Below are positions 1-17,348 of a stretch of 64,000 nucleotides of DNA, in pieces. Both the position numbers and the translations under genes were made by a program. Position 1 is the first letter of the stretch, and every line of letters starts with the position of its first letter. The notes under the pieces are model-generated. The model saw only the letters and a program-made list of their open reading frames with translations, was not told the origin of the DNA and made no database searches. The DNA lies in assembly GCA_017532345.1 (NCBI GenBank), contig JAFXJJ010000005.1:2193-66192 (forward strand), read 5' to 3'. This DNA comes from Erysipelotrichales bacterium. Lineage in GTDB: Bacteria; Bacillota_I; Bacilli_A; Erysipelotrichales; Erysipelotrichaceae.

Positions 1-614
1 GGATGACCTGTCTTCTCTACATGATGTGCCTTAACATTTGGAATTTCCCAAACATCTGAAGGATTTTTGCCTAAAGGATTACCACTTAATTTACCTTTAT
101 TAGGTCCTTTGTAATGTCTTTTCCCCGGATATTTTTGTGGAATTCTAACTTCATCCAAATTAAAAATATATTCTTTTCCTTTTGTAAACCACAATATAGT
201 TTCATGTCTCCCACTAAAACGTTGAGTACTATTCAAACCATGTCCAAATGTCCAAATTATTCTGTTTCTAAGTATGAATGGATATTTCAATTGATGATTT
301 TGCGATGTAAAAATCTCATAAATTAAATAATCTAATGGAATGATTGAACAATCTGTCACGTGATAACCAGTTTGCCAACATACACTTCCGCCTGGTTTCA
401 AAATTCTATAAATTTCTTCAAATATCTCATTGTGCAAGTTTTTGAAGGTGTTTATATCATCACTTGGGTCCTCGTAAGCTTTCTTCATACAATAAGGAGG
501 CGACGTGACAATCAAATCAACTGCTTCATCAGGAATCTCCTTCAGCAAATTCAAACAATTGCCATTATACAATGTCATTTGATTTTCATTTTTATAATGT
601 TTATATATTCTCAT
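1..614 (-). CDS. DNA methyltransferase (N4-cytosine/N6-adenine, beta-class, SPPY motif); 3' end runs off the window
   Basis: Absent from the ORF track because no stop lies inside the window. Hand translation of the minus strand from ATG at 614-612 gives MRIYKHYKNENQMTLYNGNCLNLLKEIPDEAVDLIVTSPPYCMKKAYED...ILKPGGSVCWQTG...RHETILWFTKG...SDVWEIPNVKAHHVEKTGHP. DLIVTSPPY is the catalytic motif IV of N-4/N-6 MTases. Plus-strand ORFs 114..326 and 360..635 are antisense artefacts. Confidence 0.8.
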   Translation of the reverse strand, partial: MRIYKHYKNENQMTLYNGNCLNLLKEIPDEAVDLIVTSPPYCMKKAYEDPSDDINTFKNLHNEIFEEIYRILKPGGSVCWQTGYHVTDCSIIPLDYLIYEIFTSQNHQLKYPFILRNRIIWTFGHGLNSTQRFSGRHETILWFTKGKEYIFNLDEVRIPQKYPGKRHYKGPNKGKLSGNPLGKNPSDVWEIPNVKAHHVEKTGH

Positions 615-904
615 TTAATTCCCTACTCTCTTTAAATAATTAGGCTTAGTATAATTTTATTATAACACAATCTTATAAATATCCAATAAATCATTATTAC
701 TGATGTGTTTGTTTGAAAACTTAGTTTTAAATACACAAAATACGATACAACTTAAGAATATACGCTTATTTTATAAATATTTCAAAAACTCAATTAAATT
801 AGCAAATAAAAAGGATTGATCCTTTATAAACTTAGAACCAATCCTCAATGATTTTCAATTAACTTGTTAAACTCCTTCAACCATCTATTAGTTTTTATTT
901 TATA

Positions 905-1564
905 CTATCCCCCATAAATCTCTTCAGATGCAGTAGCAGCATCTTTAAAGAATGTATCGAAGTCATCAGTATCTGGATTACCAAAGAAACAGAATGCTAC
1001 ATCCTCTGCCTTAGAGAAGCTTAGATAAATATATACTAACTTACCTGTACAGCATTCATATTCAAAGCAACAATGTCTAAAGTTCTCTGAATCTCCAATA
1101 GATACCTTCATAGATGATAATACGATATTAGCTAATGAAGAGAAGTATATACGCTTAGCTTCTTCAACATCTTCTGCTATTCCATCATCTACTAATGAAT
1201 CTATTAATAAAAATGCTTCATAATAATATCCTTCATATAATAATAACTTCTTAGCAGCTGCTATATCTTGAGATAATGCGATAAGTATATCTGATTCTTT
1301 ACCTTCTTTATCTTCTTGATTATGAGCTACTAACTGGATATCTGCTAATGAACTAAATACTTGATTAGTTACATAATCTTCTACTGTTAAGTCTTCATCA
1401 ATATATGTAACTAACTCTTTAGCATCTACACTACTCTCATATGTCATTTCTATTAGTTTATTAGCATGATCTAGATATGGTACTTTTACTTCATCATCAA
1501 TCTTATCTTTAATCATTGCTAATTCTGAATTAGTTTGTTTTAATACTGTGTATTGGTTAATCAT
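905..1564 (-). CDS. hypothetical, strongly acidic protein with HCCFEYECC cysteine cluster (partner of the KAP NTPase)
   Basis: Track ORF 905..1618. The likely start is MINQYT at 1564, preceded by AAGGAA. My hand count is about 44 D/E versus 17 K/R over 219 aa. It lies 82 nt downstream of the KAP NTPase on the same strand. I recognise no family. Confidence 0.6.
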   Translation of the reverse strand: MINQYTVLKQTNSELAMIKDKIDDEVKVPYLDHANKLIEMTYESSVDAKELVTYIDEDLTVEDYVTNQVFSSLADIQLVAHNQEDKEGKESDILIALSQDIAAAKKLLLYEGYYYEAFLLIDSLVDDGIAEDVEEAKRIYFSSLANIVLSSMKVSIGDSENFRHCCFEYECCTGKLVYIYLSFSKAEDVAFCFFGNPDTDDFDTFFKDAATASEEIYGG

Positions 1565-1646
1565 GATTGTTAATTCCTTTCGCAGAAACATTATACACTC
1601 AATTGTTGAGTAACACAATCAATTATAAACGACTTAAAATGTAAAA

Positions 1647-3425
1647 TTATAATTTTCGATAATTGTAACTTAAATTAAAGTAATCATCTAAATCTTTTAT
1701 AATACAACTTACTGTTTTTTTATTTATTTTTCCTTGTACTTCTGTTTCTGATAACAATTTATTTAATAATTTTGCATTATCACAATCATCAGGAAATATT
1801 TCATAACTAGCTCCTCTTTGATACAATAAACTAAGTGCATTTCGAAATTCTGTTAATTGTAGATTACTAGATTCTATCATCACATTATACAGTTTATTTA
1901 TATCAAAATAATATAAAAATCTTCTTTCATTTACAAAATCATTTCGATAATTCTTTAAATAACAAAAAATAGATTCTCCCCAATTTTGATTTTCCATAAA
2001 TAAATTTAACCCATTTCTTCTAGCATTTATATAATTATTTTTCGAAATAGTATCAAATTCACATAAAGTAGTTTTTAATAATAATATTGACTCTTCTGAT
2101 AAATTAGCGGCTAATCCAGAGAATTCAAAATGATAATACTCTCTTTTTGATATATTATTTTTCATTATATTTATTACTTCTTCTATGGAATTTCCATATT
2201 TATTTTTGAATCCCAACTCACTCAAAATTAAACTCGTTCTCAATATCTCTTGATATAAAGATAATTCATATTCATCATTAATTAAAATATCCATCATTTT
2301 ATCATAATTTAATTGTAAATCTTCATCTTCCATCTTATACCAATCTTTTAAAACTATGTGAGGTGACAACTCACCATCAAATTTAAGCATATTAATATAA
2401 TAATCTATTGATTTTAAAATATATTGCTCATCAAATTTTCCTTCACGAATAATTTCATGAATGAACCTAAAAGAATATTCATAGTTATCATAATTTTTAT
2501 CAAATAAAAATAAATCATAATAATTATTATTCTCCACAAACATACTATCTATTTTTTCATTATTTTTAACATAAAATTGCTCAATTCTATAAATATCTAA
2601 TACAATTGTCTTATATATAAGTTCTTGTATCATATCATTTTCACTGTTTACTAGTGATTTAATTAAATGATAAACTTCATTAGAGATTATAATCGTACTT
2701 TGAATCGTCCTTAAATTTCCATCAAAAATTCTAAGTATTTCTTTTTTTATGATATCCCACAGCATTTCACCAATTTTCAAATCATTTTCATTACAAAATG
2801 ATCTTAAATAAAGTTCTGATAAAAAAGAATCAATATCAGATTTAAATTCTAGTGTTCTAGAAATGAACTTTTCCTTTATCTTTTTATAATCATCTTTTTT
2901 ACCCACTTCGATTTCATTCGCAACAATTATACATTTACAATTTTTATGTTCAATCAAATCATTAATAATCCCCAATGAATTTGACGTTTCCATACTACAA
3001 CGTTCAAAATCATCAAAAACAAAAACTGCATCTTTTAATAATTTACTAGTTAATAATTTTTTTGTTTTCCCTAAAATATTAAATAAAAGATTTGTATTTA
3101 GTAAAAGATTTTCTTCTTCGATTAACGCATCTATTCCAGTAATAAAACTAGCAATATCATCTTTATCTTCTTTTTCTAAATTAAATCTAATAACAGCGGC
3201 ATTTATTCTTTTTTGCAATTCATCACTTGAAGAAACTCCATTCATTGTAACATAATAATATTTTTTTCTTCTATTTTTGTTTTTTAGTTTAGGCAATAAT
3301 ACATTCTTGATAAAATAACTTTTTCCACTTCCCCAATTGCCATTTATCATAACAGCAGCAGCTTCAATTTTTGTATTCCAAATATATTTATCTATATAAT
3401 CTATAATATATTCATTATTCGCCAT
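1647..3425 (-). CDS. KAP-family P-loop NTPase, soluble (no transmembrane insert seen)
   Basis: Walker A is NGNWGSGKSYF and Walker B is AVFVFDDFERCS, matching the KAP pattern GxWGxGKS / DDLDR. The likely start is MANNEY at 3425, after GAGGA. The C-terminal ~400 aa have no recognisable domain and no long hydrophobic segments. Confidence 0.7.
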   Translation of the reverse strand: MANNEYIIDYIDKYIWNTKIEAAAVMINGNWGSGKSYFIKNVLLPKLKNKNRRKKYYYVTMNGVSSSDELQKRINAAVIRFNLEKEDKDDIASFITGIDALIEEENLLLNTNLLFNILGKTKKLLTSKLLKDAVFVFDDFERCSMETSNSLGIINDLIEHKNCKCIIVANEIEVGKKDDYKKIKEKFISRTLEFKSDIDSFLSELYLRSFCNENDLKIGEMLWDIIKKEILRIFDGNLRTIQSTIIISNEVYHLIKSLVNSENDMIQELIYKTIVLDIYRIEQFYVKNNEKIDSMFVENNNYYDLFLFDKNYDNYEYSFRFIHEIIREGKFDEQYILKSIDYYINMLKFDGELSPHIVLKDWYKMEDEDLQLNYDKMMDILINDEYELSLYQEILRTSLILSELGFKNKYGNSIEEVINIMKNNISKREYYHFEFSGLAANLSEESILLLKTTLCEFDTISKNNYINARRNGLNLFMENQNWGESIFCYLKNYRNDFVNERRFLYYFDINKLYNVMIESSNLQLTEFRNALSLLYQRGASYEIFPDDCDNAKLLNKLLSETEVQGKINKKTVSCIIKDLDDYFNLSYNYRKL

Positions 3426-3473
3426 ATTTTCATTCCTCACATCTAACAAAATTATATATGTTCTTATATAAAT

Positions 3474-3508
3474 ACAAAAGAAAGCATTGTGAAACTACAA
3501 TACTTTCC
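3474..3508 (-). terminator. intrinsic terminator after hsdR
   Basis: On the minus strand the sequence reads GAAAGUAUUGU-aguuuc-ACAAUGCUUUC, an 11-bp stem with one G-U pair, followed by UUUUGU. It separates hsdR from the KAP module, which therefore needs its own promoter (TATAAT-like boxes follow). Confidence 0.6.
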
Positions 3509-3516
3509 CATGTAAA

Positions 3517-6500
3517 TTACACCCCAAAATACTTATCAAAGAATACTAATAATTTATCAATAACTACTTGCTTCTTATCAGCTCTATTTCCACCACCAAA
3601 TAACGACATAGCAGGTAAAATAGAACTAATCTCAGTTCCTGTAGTCTTTAAATATCCATCACGGAAACAATCATCTAAGAACTTACGTGTAGGTTCATCT
3701 TTTAATTTTTCTTCAGAAATAATCTTAGAAATTTCTTTTTCTTTTTGTTCAGCAATATATGTTTTCCAATCTTGACCAATATCACTAGATGCATTTAAGT
3801 TATTTAGGAACTCTTCAATCAATTGTTTCTTACTACGTAATTGAGGACTAGAACCTAATGTTTTAGAAATCTTTAATGATATTTCTTTATTCGTACAATT
3901 TTCACTATGATACTTTTCAACTAAAGCAAGAATATAATCAATATTTATATCTACTTGTTTAATTAATTCCATTTCAAATTCAATATCATCAATAATATCA
4001 ACACGTTCCTTTTTAGTCGATGGAACAATCACATTTCTTATATCTAAATATTTACTTTGATAATCTTGGAACTCTCCAATTAACATAGTATCATCTTCTG
4101 CAAATTGGTCAAAATCTGTTAAGATATTTCTTACTCTTAATAGTGCATTGAATAAAGAAATAAATTTCTTCATATTCTCCTCACCAATTATTTCATCATT
4201 TACAGGGAATAATTCATGAAGCTTATTTAATAATTCAGCATATCCATCATGATGAACACCTTTTTCATCATCATAACCATAATAGTAAGAATCATAATCT
4301 TTAAGTAATATTACACCACCAGCTTCTTTATCACCGAATAATGATATTGCATCATCAGTAGCTTTTTGTAAATCTCTAAAACATACAATATTACCATATG
4401 TTTTAACTGCATTTAAAATACGATTAGTACGCGAAAATGCTTGAATTAATCCATGCATTTTTAAGTTCTTATCAACCCATAAAGTGTTCATAGTAGTAGC
4501 ATCAAATCCTGTTAAGAACATATTAACTACAATTACTAAGTCAACCTCACGTTTCTTCATACGCTGTGATAAGTCTTTATAATAGTTATGAAACTTATCT
4601 GAAGATGTATCATAATTTGTATGAAATTCCATGTTGTAATCCATAATTGCTTCTTCTAAGAAATCACGGTCATTCTTATCTAATGATTCAGTATCAAAAC
4701 TTTCTTCTTCATCATCATTTGCACCATAACTATAAATAACAGCAATAGATAATCTCTGATTATCTGGTAATTCTGCCATTTGTTTCTTAAATTCATAATA
4801 ATACTTCTTTGCTACTGGAATAGAAGATACAGCAAATAGTGAGTTAAACCCATTAACTCTTTTCCCTTCTAATGTATAATAAGCACCACCAGTACGTTTT
4901 GTTTTTTGGTCAAAATGATCAAGAATATATTTAGTTACTTCACTAATACGTTCAGGTGCAGATAGAGCCTTTTCTGTATTGATAGCTTCTACTTCACTAT
5001 CGCTCATATTTTCTTTGCTCTTAATTGTATTAATATAATCAATACGGAATGGAAGTACATTTCCATCATTAATCGCATCTACTATTGTATAAATATGTAG
5101 TTTATCACCAAATGCTTGTTCTGTAGTCTTTAAATCTGGCATCCCTCCCATACTTGCATTAGCAGTAAATATTGGAGTACCAGTAAAGCCAAAGATATGA
5201 TAATTCTTAAAATTCTTTATAATAGCTGTATGCATTGTACCAAATTGAGAACGATGACATTCGTCAAATATTAAAACTACATGCTTCTTGAAAATCTCAT
5301 GTCCTTTATTTTTTGAAATGAATACAGATAATTTTTGAATTGTTGTTATTATGATTTTCGCATTAGGATCTTCTAATTGTTGTTGAAGTATCTTAGTTGA
5401 TTTATTACTATTAGCGGCACCTTTTTGGAATCTATCATATTCTTTCATTGTTTGATAGTCTAAGTCTGCTCTATCAACTACGAATAATACTTTCTCAATA
5501 CTATCTAATTGTGTTACTAATTGAGCAGTCTTAAAGGAAGTAAGCGTTTTACCAGAACCAGTAGTATGCCATACATACCCACCAGCTTCTACACTTCCTG
5601 TTCTCTTATAATTTGTAGATATTTTAATACGTTGAATAATAGCTTCTGTAGCAGCTATTTGATATGGACGCATTACTAATAAAATATCTTGAGTAGTAAA
5701 TATACAATAACGAGTAAGAATACTTAAAATAGTATGTTTGGCAAAGAATGTTTTAGTAAAATCAACTAAATCAACAATAGTTTTATTTTTACTATCAGCC
5801 CAATAACTAGTAAATTCAAAACTATTACTAGTTTTCTTACTATTCTTTTTAGCACTATTATCTTTCTCTTCTTTAATACGTGATTCACGTGTTGTATTAG
5901 AATAATACTTAGTATGTGTACCATTTGAAATCACAAATATTTGTATATATTCATATAAACCACTACCAGCCCAAAAACTATCACGTTGATAACGATTTAT
6001 TTGATTAAAAGCTTCTTTTAAAGCTACTCCACGACGTTTTAATTCAACATGCACCAAAGGTAAACCATTTACTAAAATAGTTACATCATAACGATTATCA
6101 TATTTAGCACCATCATTAGAACTTACTTCATATTGATTAATAACTTGTAAACGATTATTATGAATATTCTTTTTATCAATCAATGAAATATTCATACTAG
6201 TACCATCATCACGCTTCAACACTTGAACATAATCTTCTTGTATTCTTCTAGTTTTCTCTACAATACCTTCATTCTTATTCGCAATCTTCTCAAAGTAAAA
6301 AGTATTCCATTCTTTCTCACTAAACTGATAATTATTTAGTAATTCTAATTGCTTACGTAAGTTAACTACTAAATCCTTCTCTTCATGAATAGAAAGATAT
6401 TCATATCCTTGTTTCTCTAAGTTTTCAATGAATTCTTTCTCTAAATCATCTTCACTTTGATAAGAATCCACATGACGAACTTCAGGTTTATACTCAGACA

Positions 6501-6546
6501 CAACTGTACTTTCATTACTTGAAGCAACTATATTATATGTACTCAT
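3517..6546 (-). CDS. hsdR: type I restriction endonuclease subunit R (EcoR124I/type IC-like)
   Basis: 1009 aa. PD-(D/E)xK nuclease motif DVTILVNGLPLVHVELKRRG, helicase motif I HTTGSGKTLTSF and motif II IFDECHRSQ. Directly follows hsdS. Confidence 0.95.
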   Translation of the reverse strand: MSTYNIVASSNESTVVSEYKPEVRHVDSYQSEDDLEKEFIENLEKQGYEYLSIHEEKDLVVNLRKQLELLNNYQFSEKEWNTFYFEKIANKNEGIVEKTRRIQEDYVQVLKRDDGTSMNISLIDKKNIHNNRLQVINQYEVSSNDGAKYDNRYDVTILVNGLPLVHVELKRRGVALKEAFNQINRYQRDSFWAGSGLYEYIQIFVISNGTHTKYYSNTTRESRIKEEKDNSAKKNSKKTSNSFEFTSYWADSKNKTIVDLVDFTKTFFAKHTILSILTRYCIFTTQDILLVMRPYQIAATEAIIQRIKISTNYKRTGSVEAGGYVWHTTGSGKTLTSFKTAQLVTQLDSIEKVLFVVDRADLDYQTMKEYDRFQKGAANSNKSTKILQQQLEDPNAKIIITTIQKLSVFISKNKGHEIFKKHVVLIFDECHRSQFGTMHTAIIKNFKNYHIFGFTGTPIFTANASMGGMPDLKTTEQAFGDKLHIYTIVDAINDGNVLPFRIDYINTIKSKENMSDSEVEAINTEKALSAPERISEVTKYILDHFDQKTKRTGGAYYTLEGKRVNGFNSLFAVSSIPVAKKYYYEFKKQMAELPDNQRLSIAVIYSYGANDDEEESFDTESLDKNDRDFLEEAIMDYNMEFHTNYDTSSDKFHNYYKDLSQRMKKREVDLVIVVNMFLTGFDATTMNTLWVDKNLKMHGLIQAFSRTNRILNAVKTYGNIVCFRDLQKATDDAISLFGDKEAGGVILLKDYDSYYYGYDDEKGVHHDGYAELLNKLHELFPVNDEIIGEENMKKFISLFNALLRVRNILTDFDQFAEDDTMLIGEFQDYQSKYLDIRNVIVPSTKKERVDIIDDIEFEMELIKQVDINIDYILALVEKYHSENCTNKEISLKISKTLGSSPQLRSKKQLIEEFLNNLNASSDIGQDWKTYIAEQKEKEISKIISEEKLKDEPTRKFLDDCFRDGYLKTTGTEISSILPAMSLFGGGNRADKKQVVIDKLLVFFDKYFGV

Positions 6547-6550
6547 ATGC

Positions 6551-7807
6551 TTACTCCTTTGGTAATTCTTTGAATGTTAATAACTTATCTCTATAATACT
6601 CATACTGTTTTTGTCTTGCCGCATATTCATCAGAAAGACTTACTGAAATATCATTATAAAGGGTATCAATGTGGTCAAGTGCAATGACAATTCTTTGTTG
6701 TTCTTCAAGTGATGGTATAGGAATATCCAAAGTCACCAATCCTTGTTGCGTTAAATGCGGTATCGTCGACCCCGTTTTAACACTTTCAACAAAATCTTTA
6801 AAATATTTAGAAGTAAAATAATGATACATATATCGTGGAATAACAATATCTTGGTTTAACTTAACTCTAAACACCCCACTGTTTAATGTAGTTGGTTTTA
6901 TCGGTTCTTCCTCCAATATCGCAATTTTTCCCAGAGTTCCATCCTTAGTAATTAAAATATCATCTTTATGGACAATAATATTCTCATCCATTTCATATCG
7001 CTCTTTTGTTACAAATACGCAAGAATCAAAATTAATATGTCCATCCGCAAGAAAATCTGTTCCTGTTATCAGGAAATAGTCTCCAGTCTCTAAGTACTCT
7101 GCTCTTGTTAATCTTTGCCATCCTACACGAGCTTTTAATAAAGCTATGTCAGTTATATGCATGATTTGTTTATTTTTTGCTGTTTCAAACACTAGATGTT
7201 TATGATACTCATACTGTTTCTTTCTCGCTGAGACTTCTGCTGTTAGCTCTGCTATAAGCTCTGCTGTTAGTTCTGTGAAATTATCTAAGATACGAACGAT
7301 TTCTTGCTGTACAGGAAGTGGAGGTACAGGGATTAACAATTCATCAAAAGAGGCGAGATTAAGATTATTTCTATCACTGATGGTCTTTGACGTAATCTGT
7401 TCTTTACACAAATGAGAATTAAGATATTTACAAAGAAATTCTGGTGTAATTTCTTCGCGATTTCGAATTCTTGAAGATATGGTTGTAAATCCGATAGTCC
7501 CATCATACTCAGAAGTAATAACTGCTGAAGTTCCTACATCCCCAGTATGAATAGTAATAACATCGTTTTTTCTTAGTATTTTTTTCGAGTTTCGTCGAGC
7601 AAAATCTTCCGTAATATATTCAATGTTCTTAACAACAATTTTTCCATCTTTAATATCCGAATTATGCAGCAGCAGTACACCGTTTTCTGCTTTATACTTT
7701 GTTACAGACGTCGCTAACCCAATGAACGTTTCAGCAATATCTGATATTTTCTTATAAATAACCCCATTCGGGCATAATTCTTCTATCAGTCTTTCTAATT
7801 CACTCAT
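6551..7807 (-). CDS. hsdS: type I restriction-modification specificity subunit S
   Basis: 418 aa with two target-recognition halves. Each half ends in a conserved helix: central ...TAEVSARKKQYEYHKHLVF and C-terminal ...EYAARQKQYEYYRDKLL. Lies between hsdM and hsdR. Confidence 0.9.
   Translation of the reverse strand: MSELERLIEELCPNGVIYKKISDIAETFIGLATSVTKYKAENGVLLLHNSDIKDGKIVVKNIEYITEDFARRNSKKILRKNDVITIHTGDVGTSAVITSEYDGTIGFTTISSRIRNREEITPEFLCKYLNSHLCKEQITSKTISDRNNLNLASFDELLIPVPPLPVQQEIVRILDNFTELTAELIAELTAEVSARKKQYEYHKHLVFETAKNKQIMHITDIALLKARVGWQRLTRAEYLETGDYFLITGTDFLADGHINFDSCVFVTKERYEMDENIIVHKDDILITKDGTLGKIAILEEEPIKPTTLNSGVFRVKLNQDIVIPRYMYHYFTSKYFKDFVESVKTGSTIPHLTQQGLVTLDIPIPSLEEQQRIVIALDHIDTLYNDISVSLSDEYAARQKQYEYYRDKLLTFKELPKE
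7235..7270 (-). repeat. three tandem 12-nt units encoding LTAE-LIAE-LTAE in the central conserved region of hsdS
   Basis: Minus strand reads CTAACAGCAGAG CTTATAGCAGAG CTAACAGCAGAA, corresponding to protein FTE-LTAE-LIAE-LTAE-VS. Confidence 0.85.
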
Positions 7808-7810
7808 ATA

Positions 7811-9376
7811 TTATTGCACCTCGATTTCTGCAATAATTCTATCAATTTCATCACGGAGCACCTGCTCTCTAGCTACAATTTCTTTTATTTTAGCATTTAA
7901 CTTTACAATATCAATTACTTCTCTTGTATCTTCTTGTTCTACATATGTAGATATAGATAGATTATAGTCATTTTCTTTAATTTCATGATATGATGCTAAT
8001 TTAGAAATATAGTCTTTATCTTCTCTTGCTTTATATACTTCAAGAATATGCTGAATATTATCTGAAGTTAATTGATTTGAATTAGTAACTTTGATACATT
8101 CTTTTGAAGCATCAATGAATAGAATACTATTATCTTTCTTAGCTTTCTTTAATACCATGATACAAGTAGCAATAGAAGTGCCAAAGAATAGATTGTCTGG
8201 TAATTGAATAACACAATCAATGAAGTTATTATCAACTAAGTATTTACGAATCTTTTGTTCTGCACCACCACGATACATAATACCAGGGAAACATACAATA
8301 GAAGCTACACCATCACTAGCTAACCATGATAATGAATGCATTATGAAAGCAAGGTCAGCTTTAGATTTAGGTGCTAAAACACCTGCAGGTGAGAAACGTG
8401 GGTCATTAATTAATGTACCATTATCATCGCCTTCCCATTTAATACTATATGGAGGATTAGATACAATCACTTCAAATGGTTCATCATCCCAATGTTTAGG
8501 CTCAGTTAATGTATCTGCATTAGCAATATCAAACTTATCATAGTTTACATCATGTAAGAACATATTAATACGACATAAGTTGTATGTAGTAATATTAATT
8601 TCTTGACCATAATAACCATTTCTTACTTTATCAGTTCCTAAAATCTTAGCAGTTTGAAGAAGTAATGAGCCAGAACCACAAGCTGGATCATATACTTTAT
8701 TAACAGTTTCTTTACCAATTAAAGCAATTCTAGTTAATAATTCTGATACTTCTTGTGGAGTATAATATTCTCCACCACTCTTACCAGCATTAGAAGCATA
8801 CATCCCCATTAAATATTCATAAGCATCACCGAATAAATCAGTAGAATTATTTTGATAATTACCAAAATTCATTTCACCAATACCATTTAATAATTTAACA
8901 AGCTTTGCATTTCTATTAGCTACTGTATTACCTAGTTTATTACTATTTACATCAATATCATCAAATAGACCAGCAAAGTTCTTTTCAGAATTAGTACCTT
9001 TTGATGAAGCTTCAATATTCTTAAATATTCTTTCTAATGTCATATTTAAGTTTTCATCTTTATCAGCATTCTTCTTTACATTACAGAATAATTCAGATGG
9101 TAAAATAAAGAACCCTTTTTCATTAACCATTTGTTCACGTGCTAATTCAGCCATTTCATCAGAAATATCTGCATAAACAAAATCAGTTTCTCCAGCTTCT
9201 TTTTGAATCTTCTCAATATATTGAGACATATTCTCTGAAATAAAGCGATAGAAAAGCATCCCAAGTACATAAGACTTGAAATCCCATCCATCTACGCTAC
9301 CTCTAAGGTCATTAGCAATACCCCAAATAGTACGATATAACTCTGAACGTTCTTGAACGCTTTTATTGTCTGCCAT
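7811..9376 (-). CDS. hsdM: type I restriction-modification N6-adenine DNA methyltransferase subunit M
   Basis: 521 aa. SAM motif VYDPACGSGSLLL and catalytic motif VSNPPYSIKW. First gene of the hsdM-hsdS-hsdR string, with 3-4 nt gaps between genes. Confidence 0.95.
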   Translation of the reverse strand: MADNKSVQERSELYRTIWGIANDLRGSVDGWDFKSYVLGMLFYRFISENMSQYIEKIQKEAGETDFVYADISDEMAELAREQMVNEKGFFILPSELFCNVKKNADKDENLNMTLERIFKNIEASSKGTNSEKNFAGLFDDIDVNSNKLGNTVANRNAKLVKLLNGIGEMNFGNYQNNSTDLFGDAYEYLMGMYASNAGKSGGEYYTPQEVSELLTRIALIGKETVNKVYDPACGSGSLLLQTAKILGTDKVRNGYYGQEINITTYNLCRINMFLHDVNYDKFDIANADTLTEPKHWDDEPFEVIVSNPPYSIKWEGDDNGTLINDPRFSPAGVLAPKSKADLAFIMHSLSWLASDGVASIVCFPGIMYRGGAEQKIRKYLVDNNFIDCVIQLPDNLFFGTSIATCIMVLKKAKKDNSILFIDASKECIKVTNSNQLTSDNIQHILEVYKAREDKDYISKLASYHEIKENDYNLSISTYVEQEDTREVIDIVKLNAKIKEIVAREQVLRDEIDRIIAEIEVQ

Positions 9377-9696
9377 TATTAATTCCTCGTTTCTTAATAA
9401 ATATATTATATCATTTTGTAATTTATTATTAAACTAAATTAACTACTATTATTATTTTTAAAATTTAAATTTATGCATCCTTAAAACTATAAAAACTAGC
9501 AATGAGAAATCATATAAATATCTACTGCTAGTTTATTTATTCATTTAGAGATTCCAATCATAACAATAAGCATCAAATTTCGATATTATTTATACTGCAC
9601 TAATTCTTACGTTATTTATGCTATTACTTAATAACATAGCTAAAATATTCTATATAATATTTTTATTAAGATAATATCAAACTTTATTCGTGATGA

Positions 9697-10527
9697 TTAA
9701 GCGAACATCAAAATATCATCACAATCAATTAAATCATATTCTTCTTTATTTTTATGATATGCTAAAATTAACATTTGCTGTAATATTTTCTCATTATATA
9801 CTATTGGATTATCATTTGAAATTTCTTTCTTCGTCAATAGACTCAAACAATTAATCAAATCATGACCATTGCAAACATATTCCTTGTCATAATTTTTACT
9901 TCTAAAGTCATTAAGTTTACCATTAACCTCATTTCGCATCTCAACACTTAATCTCATTTTCGAAACAAAATACTCTACAAATCTTTCTTCTCCTTTAAAT
10001 AGATTTTTATATTCAATATCTTCGAACGAAAAGTTATACTTTTCAATATCATTGAGTAATCTTAATAACCCTAATATATATACATCGCTATAAATAATAT
10101 TCCGTAAATCTAAATCAGATTTCTTTTTTTTCTTAGAAGAAATACAAGTATTTACTTCAGAAAATGCTCTCGATTGTATCAGAACATTTTCTAAATCTAT
10201 GTATTTGTAATAATATAGATTTTCTTGGCCACTGCAAGTTCCCCTTAAATAGTCATAATCATAATCAACAATTCCAACTACATTCTTTTTATTTCTTTTA
10301 TTCATAAGACACACTACTTTTTCCACGTATTCTTTATTGCTATTACAATTTTTTTTGCAAGCAACCTTAATATCCTTTTTTCGAAGTCCATCATTTTGCA
10401 AATGTTCCCAAAAAAGTCTATCAGTCTCACCTTCAACTAATAAGTAGTTCACTTTTGAATTCATCGATAATTCATCAGCCAGTTCACTAGGACTGAGTAA
10501 CATATCCTCTTTATTTTTTATTTTCAT
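9697..10527 (-). CDS. ariB: TOPRIM-like DUF4435-type effector, PARIS AriB-like
   Basis: 276 aa. N-terminal LLVEGETDRLFW matches the acidic TOPRIM/DUF4435 signature (xEGxxD). The start overlaps the stop of the upstream ABC-type ATPase (TAATG). Family assignment is from motif memory, not an HMM search. Confidence 0.6.
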   Translation of the reverse strand: MKIKNKEDMLLSPSELADELSMNSKVNYLLVEGETDRLFWEHLQNDGLRKKDIKVACKKNCNSNKEYVEKVVCLMNKRNKKNVVGIVDYDYDYLRGTCSGQENLYYYKYIDLENVLIQSRAFSEVNTCISSKKKKKSDLDLRNIIYSDVYILGLLRLLNDIEKYNFSFEDIEYKNLFKGEERFVEYFVSKMRLSVEMRNEVNGKLNDFRSKNYDKEYVCNGHDLINCLSLLTKKEISNDNPIVYNEKILQQMLILAYHKNKEEYDLIDCDDILMFA

Positions 10528-11846
10528 TAATCAAATTCCCCTAATTCTTCAACTAAATCCCAATTATCATTTATTATTTGAGGAGAATGAGTAGCAACTA
10601 ATATTGCTATATTATTAATACTTATTATCTTCTTGATATCTTCTATAAAATCTCGTTGCCATCTAACATTCAAAGAAATCTCTGGTTCATCTAGCAAAAC
10701 ACATTTATTTTCTCTTCCTTTAAATATTAAATTATATAATAAGACAATTTCATGTTGCTCACCAGATGATAAATCTTTTAAATTGATTTTGTAATCTTTG
10801 CTTTTTTGTATTATACTAATACCATTTTCTTTATCTACTAAAACTTCTTTCTTATTACTTAATTTATTATTTATGATACTTTTAAATAAAATAATCCTAT
10901 CAGAAATATCATTCAATGATTCCATTTTTATCTTTAAATCTAAGTAATATTCGTAAAGAATAGTTGATGTTTTTATATCCAATTGTTCAATTTCAAATTT
11001 TCCACTTAAAGAATCGCCTTTATTGTCTTCTAAAATCCCAGAATTTATATGTTTTTCACGTAAACTACTTGTATTTTCTATATTTTGTTTCAATTCATCA
11101 ATAGAGAAACATTTCTTATCTTCTATACTTTTTATCACTTTAAACGGAAATTTTTCATCCAATATCTGTGCAATATTAGCATATTCAGATAAACAGTTTT
11201 TTATTTTGTTCTTTAATTCAAGTGAACACTCTTCAACAGCATATTTCCAAGTAGTTCTAATGCTCTCAGCATTTTGGCATTCCAGCTTCAATCTGTCAGT
11301 TGTAATCAATTCAACTGATACTTTCTTTAAAATATTATATACTTCGTTAGGAATTGGAAAAACCTGTTCTTTTAATTCGTCATCTAATTCATCATAATAT
11401 TTACTAATTACTTCACTTATTCTTAAAACTTCATTGCTTTGTGTATCAACTAGAGTATCTCGCGTTTTTCTTCTTAATGATGGAATGTTATTACTCCAAA
11501 ACAATGGTGAATTAATTCTACTATTATTTTTATAATCACCAATATATTTTCCATCAATAAAGTACTTTAAGCAGACTTGATGTAAATCATCTTCTTCATC
11601 GTCTTCAATTGTTTTAATAAATTTCTCAACCTTGATAATATTATCATCAATTTCGCACTCAATATAATCAAAATCATATCCCAACAATAATTCATGATTT
11701 TGGGAAAATAATATCGAAATCATTCGTAAAACTGTAGTTTTCCCACTTCCATTTTGGCCAACAACAATAGTTATCCCATCATCTCTAAAATTTATTTCAC
11801 TATCAAAAGTTTGGAATAAATTCTTAACAAAAAATTTTTTCAACAT
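10527..11846 (-). CDS. ariA: ABC/AAA_15-21-type ATPase, PARIS AriA-like
   Basis: Walker A VVGQNGSGKTT, signature-like LSSGEQHE, Walker B VLLDEPEISL and H-loop VATHSP. The probable start is MLKKFF at 11846 after AAAGGA; the ORF maximum reaches 11867. Translationally coupled to the DUF4435-like gene. Confidence 0.65.
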   Translation of the reverse strand: MLKKFFVKNLFQTFDSEINFRDDGITIVVGQNGSGKTTVLRMISILFSQNHELLLGYDFDYIECEIDDNIIKVEKFIKTIEDDEEDDLHQVCLKYFIDGKYIGDYKNNSRINSPLFWSNNIPSLRRKTRDTLVDTQSNEVLRISEVISKYYDELDDELKEQVFPIPNEVYNILKKVSVELITTDRLKLECQNAESIRTTWKYAVEECSLELKNKIKNCLSEYANIAQILDEKFPFKVIKSIEDKKCFSIDELKQNIENTSSLREKHINSGILEDNKGDSLSGKFEIEQLDIKTSTILYEYYLDLKIKMESLNDISDRIILFKSIINNKLSNKKEVLVDKENGISIIQKSKDYKINLKDLSSGEQHEIVLLYNLIFKGRENKCVLLDEPEISLNVRWQRDFIEDIKKIISINNIAILVATHSPQIINDNWDLVEELGEFD

Positions 11847-11920
11847 AAAATCGCATCCTTTTCTCATATATCAAATTTGCTAAAATTTTTATTAAAATCA
11901 TCACTTTATAATTATTAATG

Positions 11921-14245
11921 TTATTTGTTAAATATTCTTAATAAAAAATCTCTTTCAAATTCATCTAATTGTTTAATCAACACTAAATTTCCAGTTAATA
12001 ATCTAGATTTAAATTCGTCAATTTCTAATTCCATTTCAACAGAATTTTTAGTTTCCAACTCTTTAACAGTAATGTTAGGATAACCTTTGTTTATCAAATA
12101 CGTACCAATTTTAGTAAATACACCAGTCTCATAATAATTAATAATTTTTTCAATACAAGTTTCATTTATTTCTATCTCTTTTAGCTTACAAACATAAACA
12201 AAAATAGCAAAATGTAGATTTAAATATTTCGGAACTTTATATTCGACAATTTCATTCATTTTCTTTAAAGCATTCCTAAAACATGTACTATATTCTTTGA
12301 AATCTAACTCTTTTTTGTTACTAGTTTCCTTTTTGCTTTTTATTTCGTAGGATATTAATCCACGAAATCCTAAATATGAAAATGTTTTGGCTATTGCAGG
12401 ATAAATTTTAGCTTCAAAACTTTCTATAATACCAGCCTCTAACAAATCATAAAAAATAAATTCTAAACTATTATTATCCTTACTAATAAAAATATGTAGA
12501 GATTCATATTTTTCTTTATATTTTAGTAACTCATTCTTACTTTTTGAATTTAAACCATTAAATAATTCAATTTGTTTTATCCAATCTATTGCTCTATTTT
12601 TCTCAAATACACTATTTGGAATTGAACTTTGCTCTATTTTTGTTTGTCTACTTTCTTTTAATTGTTTATTTCTCCCTATCAGATCATTAACATCTGTATT
12701 ATCAATATCCTCTACACTTATCGGCTTGTCTGTAAAAGTAATAAAATCTAATTTTTCAGTTGATGCTAAATTATTTTTCTCTTCAATCTCTTTGTCAAAT
12801 ATATAAATATTTCCTACAAAGTGATGATAATATCGACCAGCTCTTCCAATAATATTTTTAACATCAAAGACTTTTAGAGATTTTCTTCCTTTTTTATTAC
12901 CATAAAATATTAAATTTTTTGCATTTGTATTCACTCCTTCTGTTATTGAAGTAGTTGATAATATTAAATCCACATTACCTTTATTAAATAAATTTATCAT
13001 CTCATTTTGAATATACTTTGGCAATGAACCATAATGCACCGCAATGTTATTTTCTAAATATGATTTTATTGACCAATCAACTTTTAAACTACCATCTAAA
13101 TAACTATACCTATTATCTAAATGATTTATAAAGTTTCTAAGCTCGTTTGAAACTTGTCTATCTGAATAATTACTAATTTCCTTAATTTGAATCGCTAGTC
13201 TATCTATTTCATCTTTAGAAGAACAGTATATTAACGTGGAGCCAGCATCTTTGGATAATATGGTTTTCACTAATTCAATGGTAGTTTTTTTCTTTTCTGC
13301 ATAGTATCTTACAGGAATCTCATTTATAGAAATATTAGCATCCCAGCATTTAATTATATTTTTAACAACTAATTCTTCATCAATTTGAACTAATTTTACT
13401 TCATACCTATTAATAAACTCCTGTAACCCATCACCCATTTTTTGTAAATTAACATACGGTCCAGCTAAATAAAACGACTCAACTTCCTTTGATAAAATGT
13501 ACAAAACAATTCTAAAAATCTTGTCGCGATTATTTTCTTCAATGCCATCAGATTTATCAATAAAACTATTATCTATTTTATATATTTCATCCATAAAGAA
13601 AAAATCTATTTTTAATGATGGTATTTCATTCCTTAGTTTCAAATATCTCTCTGGTGTTAAAACATATATTGTTTTACTTGAAGTTTTTTCATTTGAATTT
13701 GTACTATTAATAATTTGATAGCCTAAGTTGTGTTCAATATTGAATTTATCAAGTTCATCAAAATTCTCAAACAACAACGCATTTGTAGGGAAAATTAGAA
13801 CTATTGTTTCATAACGATATTTAAAAATAATTTCTCGCAATAATCTAGTTTTACCAAATGAAGTTGGGGCACTAACAATAATTTTTTTAGACTCCAATTC
13901 ATCATAAGTATTAATCACTTTCCTTTGCTTATAATCCAATAAAGTTCCGCTCTCACTAGTATATGTTGCTTTAATAAAATCATCTTTTAGCAATTGAAAT
14001 TCGCTTAAATAAAAATTTTGAATATACTCATCATCAAAACCGTTCATATCGTTATATCCAAATATTCGCAACTTTTGAGCTGCAACATATAGTAATTCAT
14101 TCAAAAATTCATCATTTTCCTCACGTTTTTTTCTATCAGAAATTTTACACAGTATATTTCTTAATTGAATAAATGATTCAATTGATTCATCATCATAATT
14201 ATTGATAGCATGTACTAGTTCTTTTTTTGCAGTATTATTCATCAA
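11921..14245 (-). CDS. hamB: SF2 DEAD/DEAH-type helicase, Hachiman HamB-like
   Basis: 774 aa. Motif I SAPTSFGKTRL, motif II FFMDEIYKID, later motifs STTSITEGVN and IIGRAGR. Overlaps the upstream 307-aa gene by 11 nt. Confidence 0.65.
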   Translation of the reverse strand: MMNNTAKKELVHAINNYDDESIESFIQLRNILCKISDRKKREENDEFLNELLYVAAQKLRIFGYNDMNGFDDEYIQNFYLSEFQLLKDDFIKATYTSESGTLLDYKQRKVINTYDELESKKIIVSAPTSFGKTRLLREIIFKYRYETIVLIFPTNALLFENFDELDKFNIEHNLGYQIINSTNSNEKTSSKTIYVLTPERYLKLRNEIPSLKIDFFFMDEIYKIDNSFIDKSDGIEENNRDKIFRIVLYILSKEVESFYLAGPYVNLQKMGDGLQEFINRYEVKLVQIDEELVVKNIIKCWDANISINEIPVRYYAEKKKTTIELVKTILSKDAGSTLIYCSSKDEIDRLAIQIKEISNYSDRQVSNELRNFINHLDNRYSYLDGSLKVDWSIKSYLENNIAVHYGSLPKYIQNEMINLFNKGNVDLILSTTSITEGVNTNAKNLIFYGNKKGRKSLKVFDVKNIIGRAGRYYHHFVGNIYIFDKEIEEKNNLASTEKLDFITFTDKPISVEDIDNTDVNDLIGRNKQLKESRQTKIEQSSIPNSVFEKNRAIDWIKQIELFNGLNSKSKNELLKYKEKYESLHIFISKDNNSLEFIFYDLLEAGIIESFEAKIYPAIAKTFSYLGFRGLISYEIKSKKETSNKKELDFKEYSTCFRNALKKMNEIVEYKVPKYLNLHFAIFVYVCKLKEIEINETCIEKIINYYETGVFTKIGTYLINKGYPNITVKELETKNSVEMELEIDEFKSRLLTGNLVLIKQLDEFERDFLLRIFNK

Positions 14246-15158
14246 TTCCCATTCCCTTTCTCAAGTCTGATTTGCTGTATATTGGAAAAAACATAAACAT
14301 CAATTTAGTATTTAAATTTAATGCACATTTATAGTCTTTAACTGAATTTATTATAGACTTAATTTCAGCTTCAAATTGATTGTCGAAATCTTGTGTATAT
14401 ATCGATTTTTTCTCATAAGCTAATAAGCAAGGTACAATTATATTTATATTTTTCATTTCAAAATATTTTTCTAATTCATCACGTCTTTCTTCAACGCTTT
14501 TATCGACTAAATCAAAAAATAAGTCATTTAATTCACTAAGTATGTCTTTAATTTCACTATCTACACATAGTCTTTTATCTACAATAAATGTTAGTTCATC
14601 ATAAGTATAAAGAAAATCCATTTTTTCTAAATCTTCTTTAATCTTATTAATACAATACGTTCTATCTCCTAATTTAGCTTGACCTAATATTAATAAAATT
14701 TCATTTTTATTTTTCAGCATATGTACAGAATCAAAACCTTTAATTTCATTATTATCAGTTCTTTGTCTGTGAACTGTACGTATACAGGCTTTCTTGGTGT
14801 TTGGATTTTTTAACATAATTAGTAAATCTAAAAGTGTTTCACTATAAATCCCATTTTGATCGCCATGACGATTAGGCAATCTATTCTTTTTTATCACTTT
14901 AATCATTTTGTCCAAATCATCAAATTGTCCTTTTTCATACCATTCAATAAACTCTTGTTCACTATATACACAATAAGGTAAGTATTCTTTTAGTAAATTT
15001 CCAATTTTTGATGAAGCATCTTCATTATTTTCATGATGATATTTATTATATTTACCATTTTTTAAATCATACTCAATAAAAATAAGATGCTCTAATACCC
15101 TATCCTTAATTCTTTCACAAAAAATTTCATAAAACTCTGCCATACTCCCCACCACCAT
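14235..15158 (-). CDS. hamA: DUF1837-like protein, Hachiman HamA-like (putative PD-(D/E)xK-type effector)
   Basis: 307 aa, immediately upstream of and overlapping the helicase, which is the canonical hamA-hamB order. It has a possible nuclease-like D...(Q)xK stretch: DSVHMLKNKNEILLILGQAKLGD. The call rests on architecture plus weak motif evidence. Confidence 0.5.
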   Translation of the reverse strand: MVVGSMAEFYEIFCERIKDRVLEHLIFIEYDLKNGKYNKYHHENNEDASSKIGNLLKEYLPYCVYSEQEFIEWYEKGQFDDLDKMIKVIKKNRLPNRHGDQNGIYSETLLDLLIMLKNPNTKKACIRTVHRQRTDNNEIKGFDSVHMLKNKNEILLILGQAKLGDRTYCINKIKEDLEKMDFLYTYDELTFIVDKRLCVDSEIKDILSELNDLFFDLVDKSVEERRDELEKYFEMKNINIIVPCLLAYEKKSIYTQDFDNQFEAEIKSIINSVKDYKCALNLNTKLMFMFFPIYSKSDLRKGMGIDE

Positions 15159-15480
15159 TGTAAATTAATTATAAATATAATACATTTTCCCTACCATACC
15201 ACCTTATATATAAACAGTCATTGTAGTCTTACATCGACAAATTAAAGGATATTTGCTATAATTAAATATTACGTATTAATCATTACTATTACCTTTATTA
15301 TTCATTACATTTCTAGTAATTATTTACTCTCTTTATTGATAAATAAAGTAATAGAAGTCACTAAAAAACCTCATTATTTCAACCTTTTAAACATCATATT
15401 TATTTCTAGATAATCATGTTATTAAAAAGTAACATGATTATTATTTTATATACATCATAATTATAACTGTATTAACTAAA

Positions 15481-15514
15481 TAAAAATGCGATATATCATA
15501 TAACCATATCGCAC
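15481..15514 (-). terminator. intrinsic terminator downstream of hicB
   Basis: UGCGAUAU-11 nt-AUAUCGCA followed by UUUUUAUUU on the minus strand. Confidence 0.55.
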
Positions 15515-15555
15515 TTATTGTTAATTAAAGTTTTTTTTATCTTTCAACTAGATAG

Positions 15556-15774
15556 TCATTCACTTGGAGTCATAATAGTATATCCATTTTCTAATGCAGT
15601 TTCTAACCAACATCTTTTCGCATCCCGTGCATTTACAATCGCACTTTCAATTGTTTCTCCACAAGTAATGCAACCAGGTAATTCTGGAAATGAAACTACA
15701 TAGCCACCCTCATCTTTATCTTTGACTATTTCCATACGATAAGATAAAGTCAGATAATCAGCTAATTTACGCAC
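15556..15774 (-). CDS. hicB: HicB-family antitoxin (UPF0150), no hicA partner visible
   Basis: 72 aa containing GGYVVSFPELPGCITCGETIESAIVNARDA, the classic HicB N-terminal fold motif. The 108 nt upstream contain no HicA-sized ORF. Confidence 0.75.
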   Translation of the reverse strand: MRKLADYLTLSYRMEIVKDKDEGGYVVSFPELPGCITCGETIESAIVNARDAKRCWLETALENGYTIMTPSE

Positions 15775-15882
15775 ATTCTCTTTCCTCGCTCTCTAACATA
15801 TCTTTAATCATGAAAATCACTATAATAAAAAATAATTAATTATTCTTTTTATTATAGCTACAAAGTATATCTTCCATTAACA

Positions 15883-16197
15883 TTAACTATTTAAAGCTTT
15901 TTCAACATAATCTAATTCTAGATTTAATGTACTTGCAATTTGCTCAGCTGTAAAGTCATTTGAAAACATTATTTTAATGAACTCACGCGCTTTTTCTTCT
16001 CCACCTTCTCGATGAATTCCTTTAAGTTCTTGATAATCCCAATATTCTTTTATTAACCTTTCACGTGATGATTCATCGGAATTTAGAAAATCAACTTTTT
16101 CTACTATTTTATCTAATCCTTCCATAAGTTTACCAGTTCTTCTCATTATGTATTCATTTATCTTTTCTTGTATATCTTTATCGCTTTTATTATACAT
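15883..16197 (-). CDS. small protein resembling the C-terminal region of Rpn/YhgA-like nucleases (RpnS-like candidate)
   Basis: 104 aa. ...HREGGEEKAREFIKIMFSNDFTAEQIASTLNLELDYVEKAL parallels the C-terminus of the neighbouring Rpn ORF, ...EEGRGEGITIGEANMLKKNIIQMASRGLQYEVIADYLGVDIQEVEKIL. Confidence 0.45.
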   Translation of the reverse strand: MYNKSDKDIQEKINEYIMRRTGKLMEGLDKIVEKVDFLNSDESSRERLIKEYWDYQELKGIHREGGEEKAREFIKIMFSNDFTAEQIASTLNLELDYVEKALNS

Positions 16198-16226
16198 TAC
16201 CTCAATGTTCTGCAGAATAATACATA

Positions 16227-17183: not shown

Positions 17184-17300
17184 TCAATTCTACCTTTCTT
17201 ATCAATAAGTCTTTTATAATCACCATCATATTCTTGCCTCCCTTCATATTACTATTGTCATCAAAATATGAAATGCCCAAAAATTTATATAAAAACATAT

Positions 17301-17348
17301 AAAAAGCATCCTAATTACTAATTATTAGTAACTAAGATGCTTTTTTTA
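17301..17348. terminator. bidirectional intrinsic terminator at the end of the sugar operon
   Basis: AAAAAGCATCCTAATTACTA...TAGTAACTAAGATGCTTTTTTT, a long imperfect hairpin flanked by A and T runs. It abuts the GH3 stop codon. Confidence 0.7.

Follow-up and report, generated by a model that had tools for sequence, protein, structure and literature searches.

The window analysed here is a stretch of 64,000 nt from an Erysipelotrichales bacterium (contig JAFXJJ010000005.1), with a guanine plus cytosine (GC) content of 30.4%. Within its left-hand defence island, a gene for a KAP-type P-loop NTPase is followed by a gene for a small acidic protein, here called the partner. The two had been proposed, in a sequence-only reading, as an undescribed two-gene defence module. 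Our analysis leads to another explanation, which we consider probable: the two are independent genes which share a transcript in the window strain. One would encode a stand-alone soluble KAP NTPase of the PDC-S49 family, i.e., a single-gene candidate immune protein, while the other would be a passenger orphan which the NTPase does not require. An immune role of the NTPase, suggested in the sequence-only reading, is still the best interpretation of that gene.

The comparison was based on several sets of loci. Relatives of the NTPase are encoded at approximately 88 loci (L001-L004 and L007-L090), 80 from genomes and 8 from integrative and conjugative elements (ICEs). A second copy of the partner gene, independent of the window strain, is represented by L005/L006, a locus carried by gut samples LIUQ22-1 (SAMN18817839) and ERZ27317744. 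Other metagenome assemblies of the window's strain are L091, L092, L161 and L162, and L093-L156 are 64 related conjugative elements drawn from metagenomes.

The KAP-type NTPase and its family

Two minus-strand open reading frames (ORFs) were found at the locus, 3449..1647 and 1618..905. Both are real, and their positions and lengths, as well as the Walker motifs, were described correctly in the sequence-only reading. The best start of the NTPase gene is the ATG at 3425, 8 nt past a GAGGA (3438-3434), and the alternative TTG at 3449 gives a protein of 600 aa. Residues are numbered in the 592-aa form; the 600-aa ORF, used in the Pfam and PADLOC scans, adds 8. The AlphaFold2 (AF2) model of the NTPase and its conservation were built on 91 sequences. 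The features of the gene are as follows (RBS, ribosome-binding site; pLDDT, predicted local distance difference test).

1647..3425, minus strand: KAP-type P-loop NTPase, 592 aa, assigned from ORF, RBS, Pfam, PDC-S49 and AF2
3318..3341, minus strand: Walker A GNWGSGKS, aa 29-36; W31, G32, G34 and K35 invariant in 91 relatives
3051..3167, minus strand: insert of variable sequence separating the two Walker motifs, aa 87-125; pLDDT below 50, 10% family-wide identity to the window protein
2997..3020, minus strand: Walker B VFDDFERC, aa 136-143; D139, E141 and R142 invariant in 91 relatives
1650..2645, minus strand: C-terminal region, aa 261-592, mostly helical (AF2) and variable

The Pfam profile KAP_NTPase (PF07693) matched with 42.1 bits at a cutoff of 20, over profile positions 4-283 of 293 and aa 15-253 of the 600-aa ORF (about 7-245 in the 592-aa numbering). 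The protein thus combines a KAP profile match above threshold with a Walker A of the form GxxGxGK[ST] and a Walker B of the form hhhhDD.[DE]R. Residues K186 and R239 of the core were likewise invariant among the relatives. No transmembrane segment was detected in the NTPase, the highest Kyte-Doolittle 19-residue mean being 1.06, which agrees with the sequence-only reading. By the same measure a hydrophobic 19-mer (mean of 1.6 or more) was present in only 6 of the 91 relatives; in five of the 91 it starts at residues 86-104, in or near the insert. Transmembrane helices, reported for many KAP members and described as lying within or beside the NTPase domain, are therefore not universal in the family, and an NTPase without them remains a member. 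In the window protein the insert is amphipathic and predicted by AF2 to be disordered. Because five relatives are hydrophobic at this place, it looks like a reduced form of the membrane hairpin seen elsewhere in the KAP family.

The AF2 model of the NTPase was confident (pLDDT 84.8, predicted template-modelling score 0.72) and consists of an AAA+/STAND-like core, the disordered insert and mostly helical C-terminal two-thirds. Foldseek returned ORC4/Cdc6, RdrA rings, NLRC4 and Apaf-like proteins (Dark/CED-4), all with TM-scores of 0.2-0.3; these are generic AAA+/STAND matches only, and the C-terminal region was without any match. Family-wide identity to the window protein was 11-17% in the C-terminal region versus about 30% in the NTPase core. 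No Pfam domain was found in the C-terminal region, and sequences from the Protein Data Bank (PDB) gave weak helical-repeat matches only. Neither Pfam, Foldseek nor PDB sequences revealed a nuclease, protease, TIR or membrane domain anywhere in the NTPase.

All three PADLOC profiles of PDC-S49 matched the NTPase, with E-values of 7.9e-46, 8.6e-35 and 1.4e-20. Two of these matched end to end (aa 10-586 and 11-589 of 600) with the C-terminal region included. This region, in which the sequence-only reading saw no recognisable domain, has none in Pfam but is covered by the PDC-S49 profiles. The window NTPase scored 155 bits; other members reach about E 1e-262. The aligned relatives matched PDC-S49 without exception (32 of 32, best E-value 6e-262), and phrog_4740, a PHROG family without assigned function, matched the NTPase at E 4e-33. 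The nearest relatives, from Thomasclavelia ramosa and gut metagenomes, are 33-40% identical. The NTPase therefore appears to be a divergent member of PDC-S49, and its family assignment and single-gene status are much firmer than its mechanism. The PDC set comprises 145 untested 'phage defence candidates' of one or more genes, drawn from genes inside BREX, DISARM and type I restriction-modification (R-M) systems, the 'S' marking a single-gene candidate (Payne et al., bioRxiv 10.1101/2024.01.29.577857). The name PDC-S49 was not mentioned in the literature searched.

Several KAP NTPases with a similar architecture are known to defend on their own. Enterococcus EF_KAP and three metagenomic KAP NTPases, each a single gene, protect E. 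faecalis against phages (PLoS Biol 2026, PMC13552941). Their C-terminal regions, of unknown function, differ from one protein to the next; protection depends on this region as well as on Walker B, and no signs of abortive infection were seen (PMC13552941). With an end-to-end fit to PDC-S49 and with such proteins validated singly, the earlier impression that no described system matches had to be given up.

On this background we propose, with moderate confidence, how the NTPase might act. The conserved N-terminal AAA+/STAND-like core, with Walker A and B, R142, E185/K186 and an N237-x-R239 motif, would oligomerise and hydrolyse NTP. The fast-evolving helical C-terminal two-thirds would recognise a component of the invader, be it nucleic acid or a protein of a phage or plasmid, and NTP-driven assembly on the target, or remodelling of it, would then block replication of the invader. 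NTP-dependent oligomerisation is suggested by the Arg-containing N237-x-R239 motif, the ORC/STAND-like fold and the precedent of QatA, a protein of the QatABCD system which, when purified, was found to bind DNA, single- or double-stranded, and to assemble into heptamers or octamers. The C-terminal region is a candidate sensor since it diverges rapidly and since the validated KAP proteins need theirs. Since no effector domain of the nuclease, protease, TIR or membrane type is present, we propose that the effector is the NTPase-driven assembly itself. We infer oligomerisation, C-terminal sensing and an immune function in the window organism from these features.

The acidic partner and its association with the NTPase

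The signals around the two genes, together with the features of the partner, are as follows.

3478..3509, minus strand: terminator-like hairpin past hsdR, 13-bp stem, -17.9 kcal/mol, z -6.9, then UUUUGUAUUU
1565..1646, minus strand: 82-nt spacer between NTPase and partner, with a 6-bp hairpin ACTCAA/TTGAGT and no terminator
905..1564, minus strand: orphan acidic protein, 219 aa, ATG at 1564, RBS AAAGGA, isoelectric point (pI) 4.16
1049..1075, minus strand: HCCFEYECC cysteine cluster, aa 164-172, with 4 of the 5 Cys, in a predicted beta hairpin
811..846, minus strand: terminator-like hairpin and T-run past the partner, 13-bp stem, -15 kcal/mol, z -3.0

With hairpins on both sides and none between that could act as a terminator, the NTPase and partner genes form one terminator-bracketed unit in the window strain. 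The spacer folded no better than shuffled sequence (z 0.12). A TTGTGT-17-TATAAT in it was noticed by eye as a possible weak internal promoter, not listed by the consensus scan. The terminator of hsdR and a separate transcription unit, both put forward in the sequence-only reading, were supported by the hairpins at 3509..3478 and 846..811. The AT-rich promoter boxes claimed along with them were not: in the stretch from the hsdR terminator to the start of the NTPase gene the consensus scan listed no promoter of the sigma-70 type, and by eye only a TATAAT with a poor -35 was seen upstream of the NTPase. Rfam gave no RNA family in 1-17500, and no tRNA was found in the window.

There were two main observations on the conservation of the pair. 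Firstly, tblastn of the partner against the NTPase-relative loci gave no homologue, only the partner's own copies in L005/L006 being found. The genes downstream of the NTPase relatives vary in size, strand and charge; those which recur encode a hexapeptide-repeat transferase and an AbrB/SpoVT-like protein. Neither upstream nor downstream did the approximately 88 loci show a conserved partner, in keeping with the single-gene definition of PDC-S49. NTPase and partner co-occur only in L091, L092, L161 and L162, with 99.5-99.9% DNA identity to the window, and at such identity all co-occurrences represent one lineage rather than independent conservation. The sequence-only reading had itself named a pair that is not conserved as neighbours as the outcome that would refute its module, and this is what was found.

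The second observation was a nonsense allele of the partner. At L161:1237-1740 and L162:1241-1744 (corresponding to window 1564..1061), codon 168 is changed from GAA to TAA. The allele comes from two different samples and truncates the protein inside the cysteine cluster. Both contigs are short, and the NTPase gene is open over the assembled part, the C-terminal 383 codons. That the partner is truncated while the NTPase gene, where assembled, is open disfavours an obligatory or antitoxin-like role. Differences in base composition were also seen. The NTPase gene has a GC content of 22.4%, versus 30.4% in the window, and the partner gene 30.3%, and the difference between the two genes points to separate histories.

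These results bear directly on the strongest of the alternatives, namely that the pair is a genuine lineage-restricted two-gene module in which the partner would be a recently recruited regulator, antitoxin-like inhibitor or sensor adaptor. We consider this unlikely. The common orientation, the terminator-free spacer of 82 nt and the bracketing hairpins are what such a module would show, and the arrangement is identical in the four other assemblies; these assemblies are, however, a single lineage. None of the NTPase relatives has a homologous or a similar small acidic gene downstream, while the other copy of the partner follows a type III-like restriction gene. The 8-point difference in GC, the nonsense allele in two samples, which argues against an antitoxin, and the modelling of PDC-S49 as a single gene in PADLOC all speak against a module as well.

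The partner itself contains 44 D+E and 17 K+R, with a net charge of -27 and 5 Cys; the hand counts of charged residues and the HCCFEYECC motif given in the sequence-only reading were exact. It was searched against 5.8 billion clustered proteins and, by full HMMER, against 1.84 billion representatives, and formed a single cluster in each of these searches. No match was found in JGI metagenomes or IMG/VR, nor in the profiles of Pfam, NCBIfam, PADLOC and PHROGs, and tblastn against PLSDB plasmids and INPHARED phages gave no match at E up to 1. Its AF2 model, built on a two-sequence alignment, was poor (pLDDT 45), with a helical first 150 aa, a four-strand sheet and a terminal helix. All Foldseek matches of this low-confidence model had E above 0.04 and were not interpretable. 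The structural checks proposed in the sequence-only reading were thus productive for the NTPase, which gave a confident AAA+/STAND model, and not for the partner, where nothing matched. PDB matches of the partner to snake phospholipase A2 (E 2-7) were dismissed as an artefact of cysteine composition.

The copy in L005/L006 is 98% identical to that of the window in protein and 96.4% in DNA. Between the copies there are 19 synonymous and 5 non-synonymous differences (pN/pS 0.066), which indicates a real gene under purifying selection. In L006 the partner copy lies 24 nt past a type III-like Res gene ending in a PF19778 RE_endonuc domain, and no NTPase is present. The DNA likeness to the window runs from the ATG to the last codons only, and the RBSs differ. 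Nothing convincing in the way of flanking repeats or recombination sites was found around either the NTPase or the partner gene. In L005 the partner copy is followed by a gene of a small, unannotated family, which elsewhere pairs with a SEC-C protein. In L158 the slot between a type III-like Res gene and the SEC-C pair holds an unrelated, non-acidic protein of 206/227 aa. The SEC-C pair, described further below, was also observed downstream of the partner copy in L005.

As far as sequence allows a judgement, the partner is a real, lineage-restricted orphan gene encoding a predicted cytoplasmic acidic protein. Its distribution is best explained if it is a separately mobile passenger, which would settle at the 3' end of whichever defence operon precedes it. 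Our best guess for its function, held with low confidence, is a small accessory protein or modulator acting through protein binding.

The charge of the partner raises another alternative, an autonomous DNA mimic or anti-restriction modulator, or a metal-binding regulator of neighbouring restriction enzymes, unrelated to the NTPase. Both the metal site and the DNA-mimic surface suggested for it in the sequence-only reading are guesses. The partner has a pI of 4.16 and a net charge of -27, its ORF is the most acidic among the 44 large ORFs of the window, it stands co-oriented downstream of restriction genes in both contexts (with the NTPase intervening in the window), and it moves as a discrete ORF-sized cassette. 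Yet its charge per residue, -0.12, is not an extreme value; the protein that ranks next in the window has -0.085. When the 44 ORFs were compared from the first ATG, its ORF (228 aa from the ATG at 1591) had a pI of 4.23 and the next 4.38, and it was not an outlier. Further, it resembles no solved structure and no phage or plasmid protein, the confidence of the model is too low to judge the shape of the surface, and there is no obvious rationale for a host to inhibit its own restriction enzymes. With only two contexts known, we regard this explanation as quite improbable.

The conjugative-element cargo slot and the weighing of the explanations

The genomic context of the closest NTPase relatives could suggest a different kind of function. 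These genes lie co-oriented inside a type IV secretion system (T4SS) operon, between TrbL_2 (VirB6-like) and PrgI, and without the partner. The slot was examined in L001-L004, L007-L010 and L093-L156, and ten of the cargo proteins were scanned with profiles. Examples are given below.

L001:5923-7851, slot example
L093:4187-6244, slot example
L117:1395-2974, slot example
L101:5828-8205, slot example

The TrbL_2-PrgI junction measures just 13-14 nt, and is thus empty, in more than 30 of the 64 related elements. Closer relatives carry 0.3-3.6 kb of co-oriented cargo there, which is unrelated from one element to another; one GmrSD/NsnA-like protein, one PDC-S27 protein (ATPase_2, DUF234 and Mrr_cat) and one AbiJ protein were identified. 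Further cargo includes a marginal DUF3800 match, a S-adenosylmethionine (SAM) methyltransferase and a GH1 glycosidase, along with several proteins of no recognised kind, such as a 601-aa protein (L095) and a 353-aa protein (L154). Judging from its contents, the slot is a defence-enriched hot spot of gut Firmicute conjugative elements. Two NTPase alleles in it, L001:6001-7800 and L008:6001-7773, are 33% identical, while the flanking T4SS proteins share 89-99.6%. DNA identity of these alleles covers the first ~170 nt, through Walker A, and resumes at PrgI, which suggests a recombination breakpoint inside the gene, with the variable part swapped behind a constant N-terminus.

It is from this location of the closest relatives (33-40% identity) that a role in mobile-element biology could be argued. 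The NTPase family would then serve in entry exclusion, in anti-defence during transfer or as an accessory ATPase of the T4SS, and the window copy would be a cargo remnant. However, more than 30 related elements have nothing in the slot, so that the NTPase is dispensable cargo rather than part of the transfer machinery, and the alternative occupants include GmrSD-like proteins, AbiJ and PDC-S27. More distant relatives are chromosomal, some beside type I R-M or Drt2, and the window copy is flanked by defence genes with no T4SS gene nearby. A mobile-element role is therefore quite improbable in our judgement. Least probable of all, and in our view very doubtful, is a reading of the partner as a self-mobile 'rider' of a novel kind. 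As a small cassette the size of an ORF, it would insert at the 3' ends of defence operons that depend on NTP (type III restriction in one genome, the KAP NTPase after type I R-M in another); if this is true, it would modulate their enzymes, for example as a protein decoy or DNA mimic which tunes or gates them, with CC-x4-CC as a metal or redox switch.

The explanation by two independent genes has points against it as well. The evidence that relatives lack the partner comes from a single family-wide sample, the 80 genome and 8 ICE loci, and statistics on the associations of the partner are impossible with only two independent contexts. The shared transcription unit may bring co-expression and hence a local functional link. 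PDC-S49 is a candidate family, one of 145 proposed, and its association with defence in our sample is real but not overwhelming. When the neighbour genes of 35 chromosomal relatives were scanned with PADLOC and counted per family within two genes, parts of type I R-M systems were found at 3-4 and Drt2 at 2. Likewise, tblastn of the defence proteins from the window island against the loci of the relatives gave few matches. The kinship of the window NTPase to the validated KAP defences would rest on architecture, and the proposed mechanism is generic, as no effector domain was found.

If the two genes are independent, the two-gene lead is removed: the pair would be an accident of island assembly, and the NTPase family was already flagged by PADLOC. 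The NTPase would then stand as a divergent gut-Erysipelotrichales member of PDC-S49, among the soluble KAP NTPases, which are without a known effector mechanism. The partner may illustrate how genes confined to one lineage move from one defence operon to another as cassettes the size of an ORF; having two contexts and no fold, it gives further work little to build on. The cargo slot may be a more useful result than the NTPase-partner locus. Its occupants would be co-transcribed with the transfer genes, and the slot could be mined for new systems.

The surrounding island and comparison with known systems

The defence island runs from the left edge of the window to ~15.2 kb, as a PD-(D/E)XK_2 transposase-like gene at 16227-17087 is followed by housekeeping genes (GH3, amylase, MFS). 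Besides the two genes discussed above it holds the following.

1..614, minus strand: start of an N6/N4 DNA methyltransferase gene, off the window edge; Pfam N6_N4_Mtase 2e-30
3517..9376, minus strand: type I R-M operon hsdM-hsdS-hsdR; PADLOC REase_I E=0, Specificity_I 7e-76, MTase_I 4e-131
9697-11867, minus strand: AAA_15/AAA_21 ATPase of 446 aa and a 276-aa gene; partial PADLOC AriA match 1.7e-29, PtuA-like
11921-15158, minus strand: Hachiman; HamA 307 aa 7.9e-15, HamB 774 aa 1.3e-116

The view of a dense defence island was thereby borne out, with the methyltransferase and a DGQHR-like gene, the type I R-M operon, the AriA-like ATPase pair and Hachiman. The methyltransferase is not the orphan it had been taken for. 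In L091, a 99.9%-identical and longer copy of the island, it is followed with a 23-nt overlap by a DGQHR/DpdB-like gene of 579 aa (L091:12812-15464). The product has a VIDGQHR motif, a weak Pfam DndB match and a PADLOC DpdB match at 2.6e-16, and the two genes look like a module of unclear type. The NTPase gene directly follows the type I R-M operon, in which hsdR stops at 3517. Within the central conserved part of hsdS (6551-7807) a 12-nt tandem repeat was observed, 3.3 copies at 7236-7275, which encodes LTAE/LIAE. In enzymes of the EcoR124 type, the number of copies of a repeat like this determines how long the spacer within the recognition site is, and by this precedent the hsdS repeat could be specificity-switching. 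The start of the 276-aa gene overlaps the stop of the ATPase gene; its product had no PADLOC match and a sub-threshold DUF3226, and the two may form a pair resembling PARIS or Septu, in which the second component would be one not recognised so far.

The recurrent SEC-C pair was found at the following loci.

L157:2424-4780, recurrent pair
L158:6730-9086, recurrent pair
L159:5420-7815, recurrent pair
L160:7001-9399, recurrent pair

It consists of an unannotated protein of 230-332 aa (family P0122-P0135, no Pfam match) and a larger one of 480-567 aa. At three of the four loci the latter has a SEC-C motif, and the C-terminal tail of the L158 copy gave weak matches to models of PDC-S12 and E2. Type III-like R-M adjoins the pair in L158 and probably in L157, and DUF4238, Zn_ribbon_recom or DUF2971 genes do so in L159/L160.

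Among known systems, the DNA mimics Ocr and ArdA are those which the partner calls to mind, being likewise small, cytoplasmic, strongly acidic and near restriction systems. The differences are that no similarity in sequence or fold was found (the fold being judged on a low-confidence model), and that the partner gene lies in a host defence island, not in a phage or a plasmid leading region. The charge densities of Ocr and ArdA are also higher than that of the partner.

For the NTPase, the sequence-only reading had used Tmn as a KAP comparison. Tmn (Gao et al. 2020) is, however, of the YobI family, which is distinct from KAP. Its P-loop domain contains two transmembrane helices, and it works by Mg2+ export and plasmolysis. 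The likeness is that of a P-loop NTPase implicated in phage exclusion. The window protein has no transmembrane helices, and no Tmn model was among the PADLOC matches at E up to 1; since it is soluble, a membrane mechanism like that of Tmn is implausible. PifA of the F plasmid, likewise a P-loop NTPase implicated in phage exclusion, is a KAP member and is reported to be without transmembrane helices. As PifA is reported to lack such helices and QatA could be purified, solubility is no novelty among KAP NTPases, which does not support the contrast drawn in the sequence-only reading. QatA is a useful model for the action of a soluble KAP NTPase, but its PADLOC match to the window protein is marginal and N-terminal only (E 0.017, aa 9-48, 40 residues). 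The genes for QatB, QatC (QueC-like) and QatD (TatD) are not present at the locus, where the neighbours are R-M, methyltransferase and orphan genes.

EF_KAP and the three metagenomic KAP proteins share with the window NTPase a KAP P-loop NTPase followed by a function-unknown region on the scale of 300 aa, and they are likewise single genes from gut Firmicutes, in defence islands or mobile elements. EF_KAP differs in being modelled with two transmembrane helices, which the window NTPase does not have. PDC-S49 is the family to which the window NTPase comes nearest. The window protein is divergent, its nearest relatives being only 40% identical, and it has in common with the family the size of ~600-690 aa, the soluble KAP core, the helical C-terminal region and the position adjoining a type I R-M operon.

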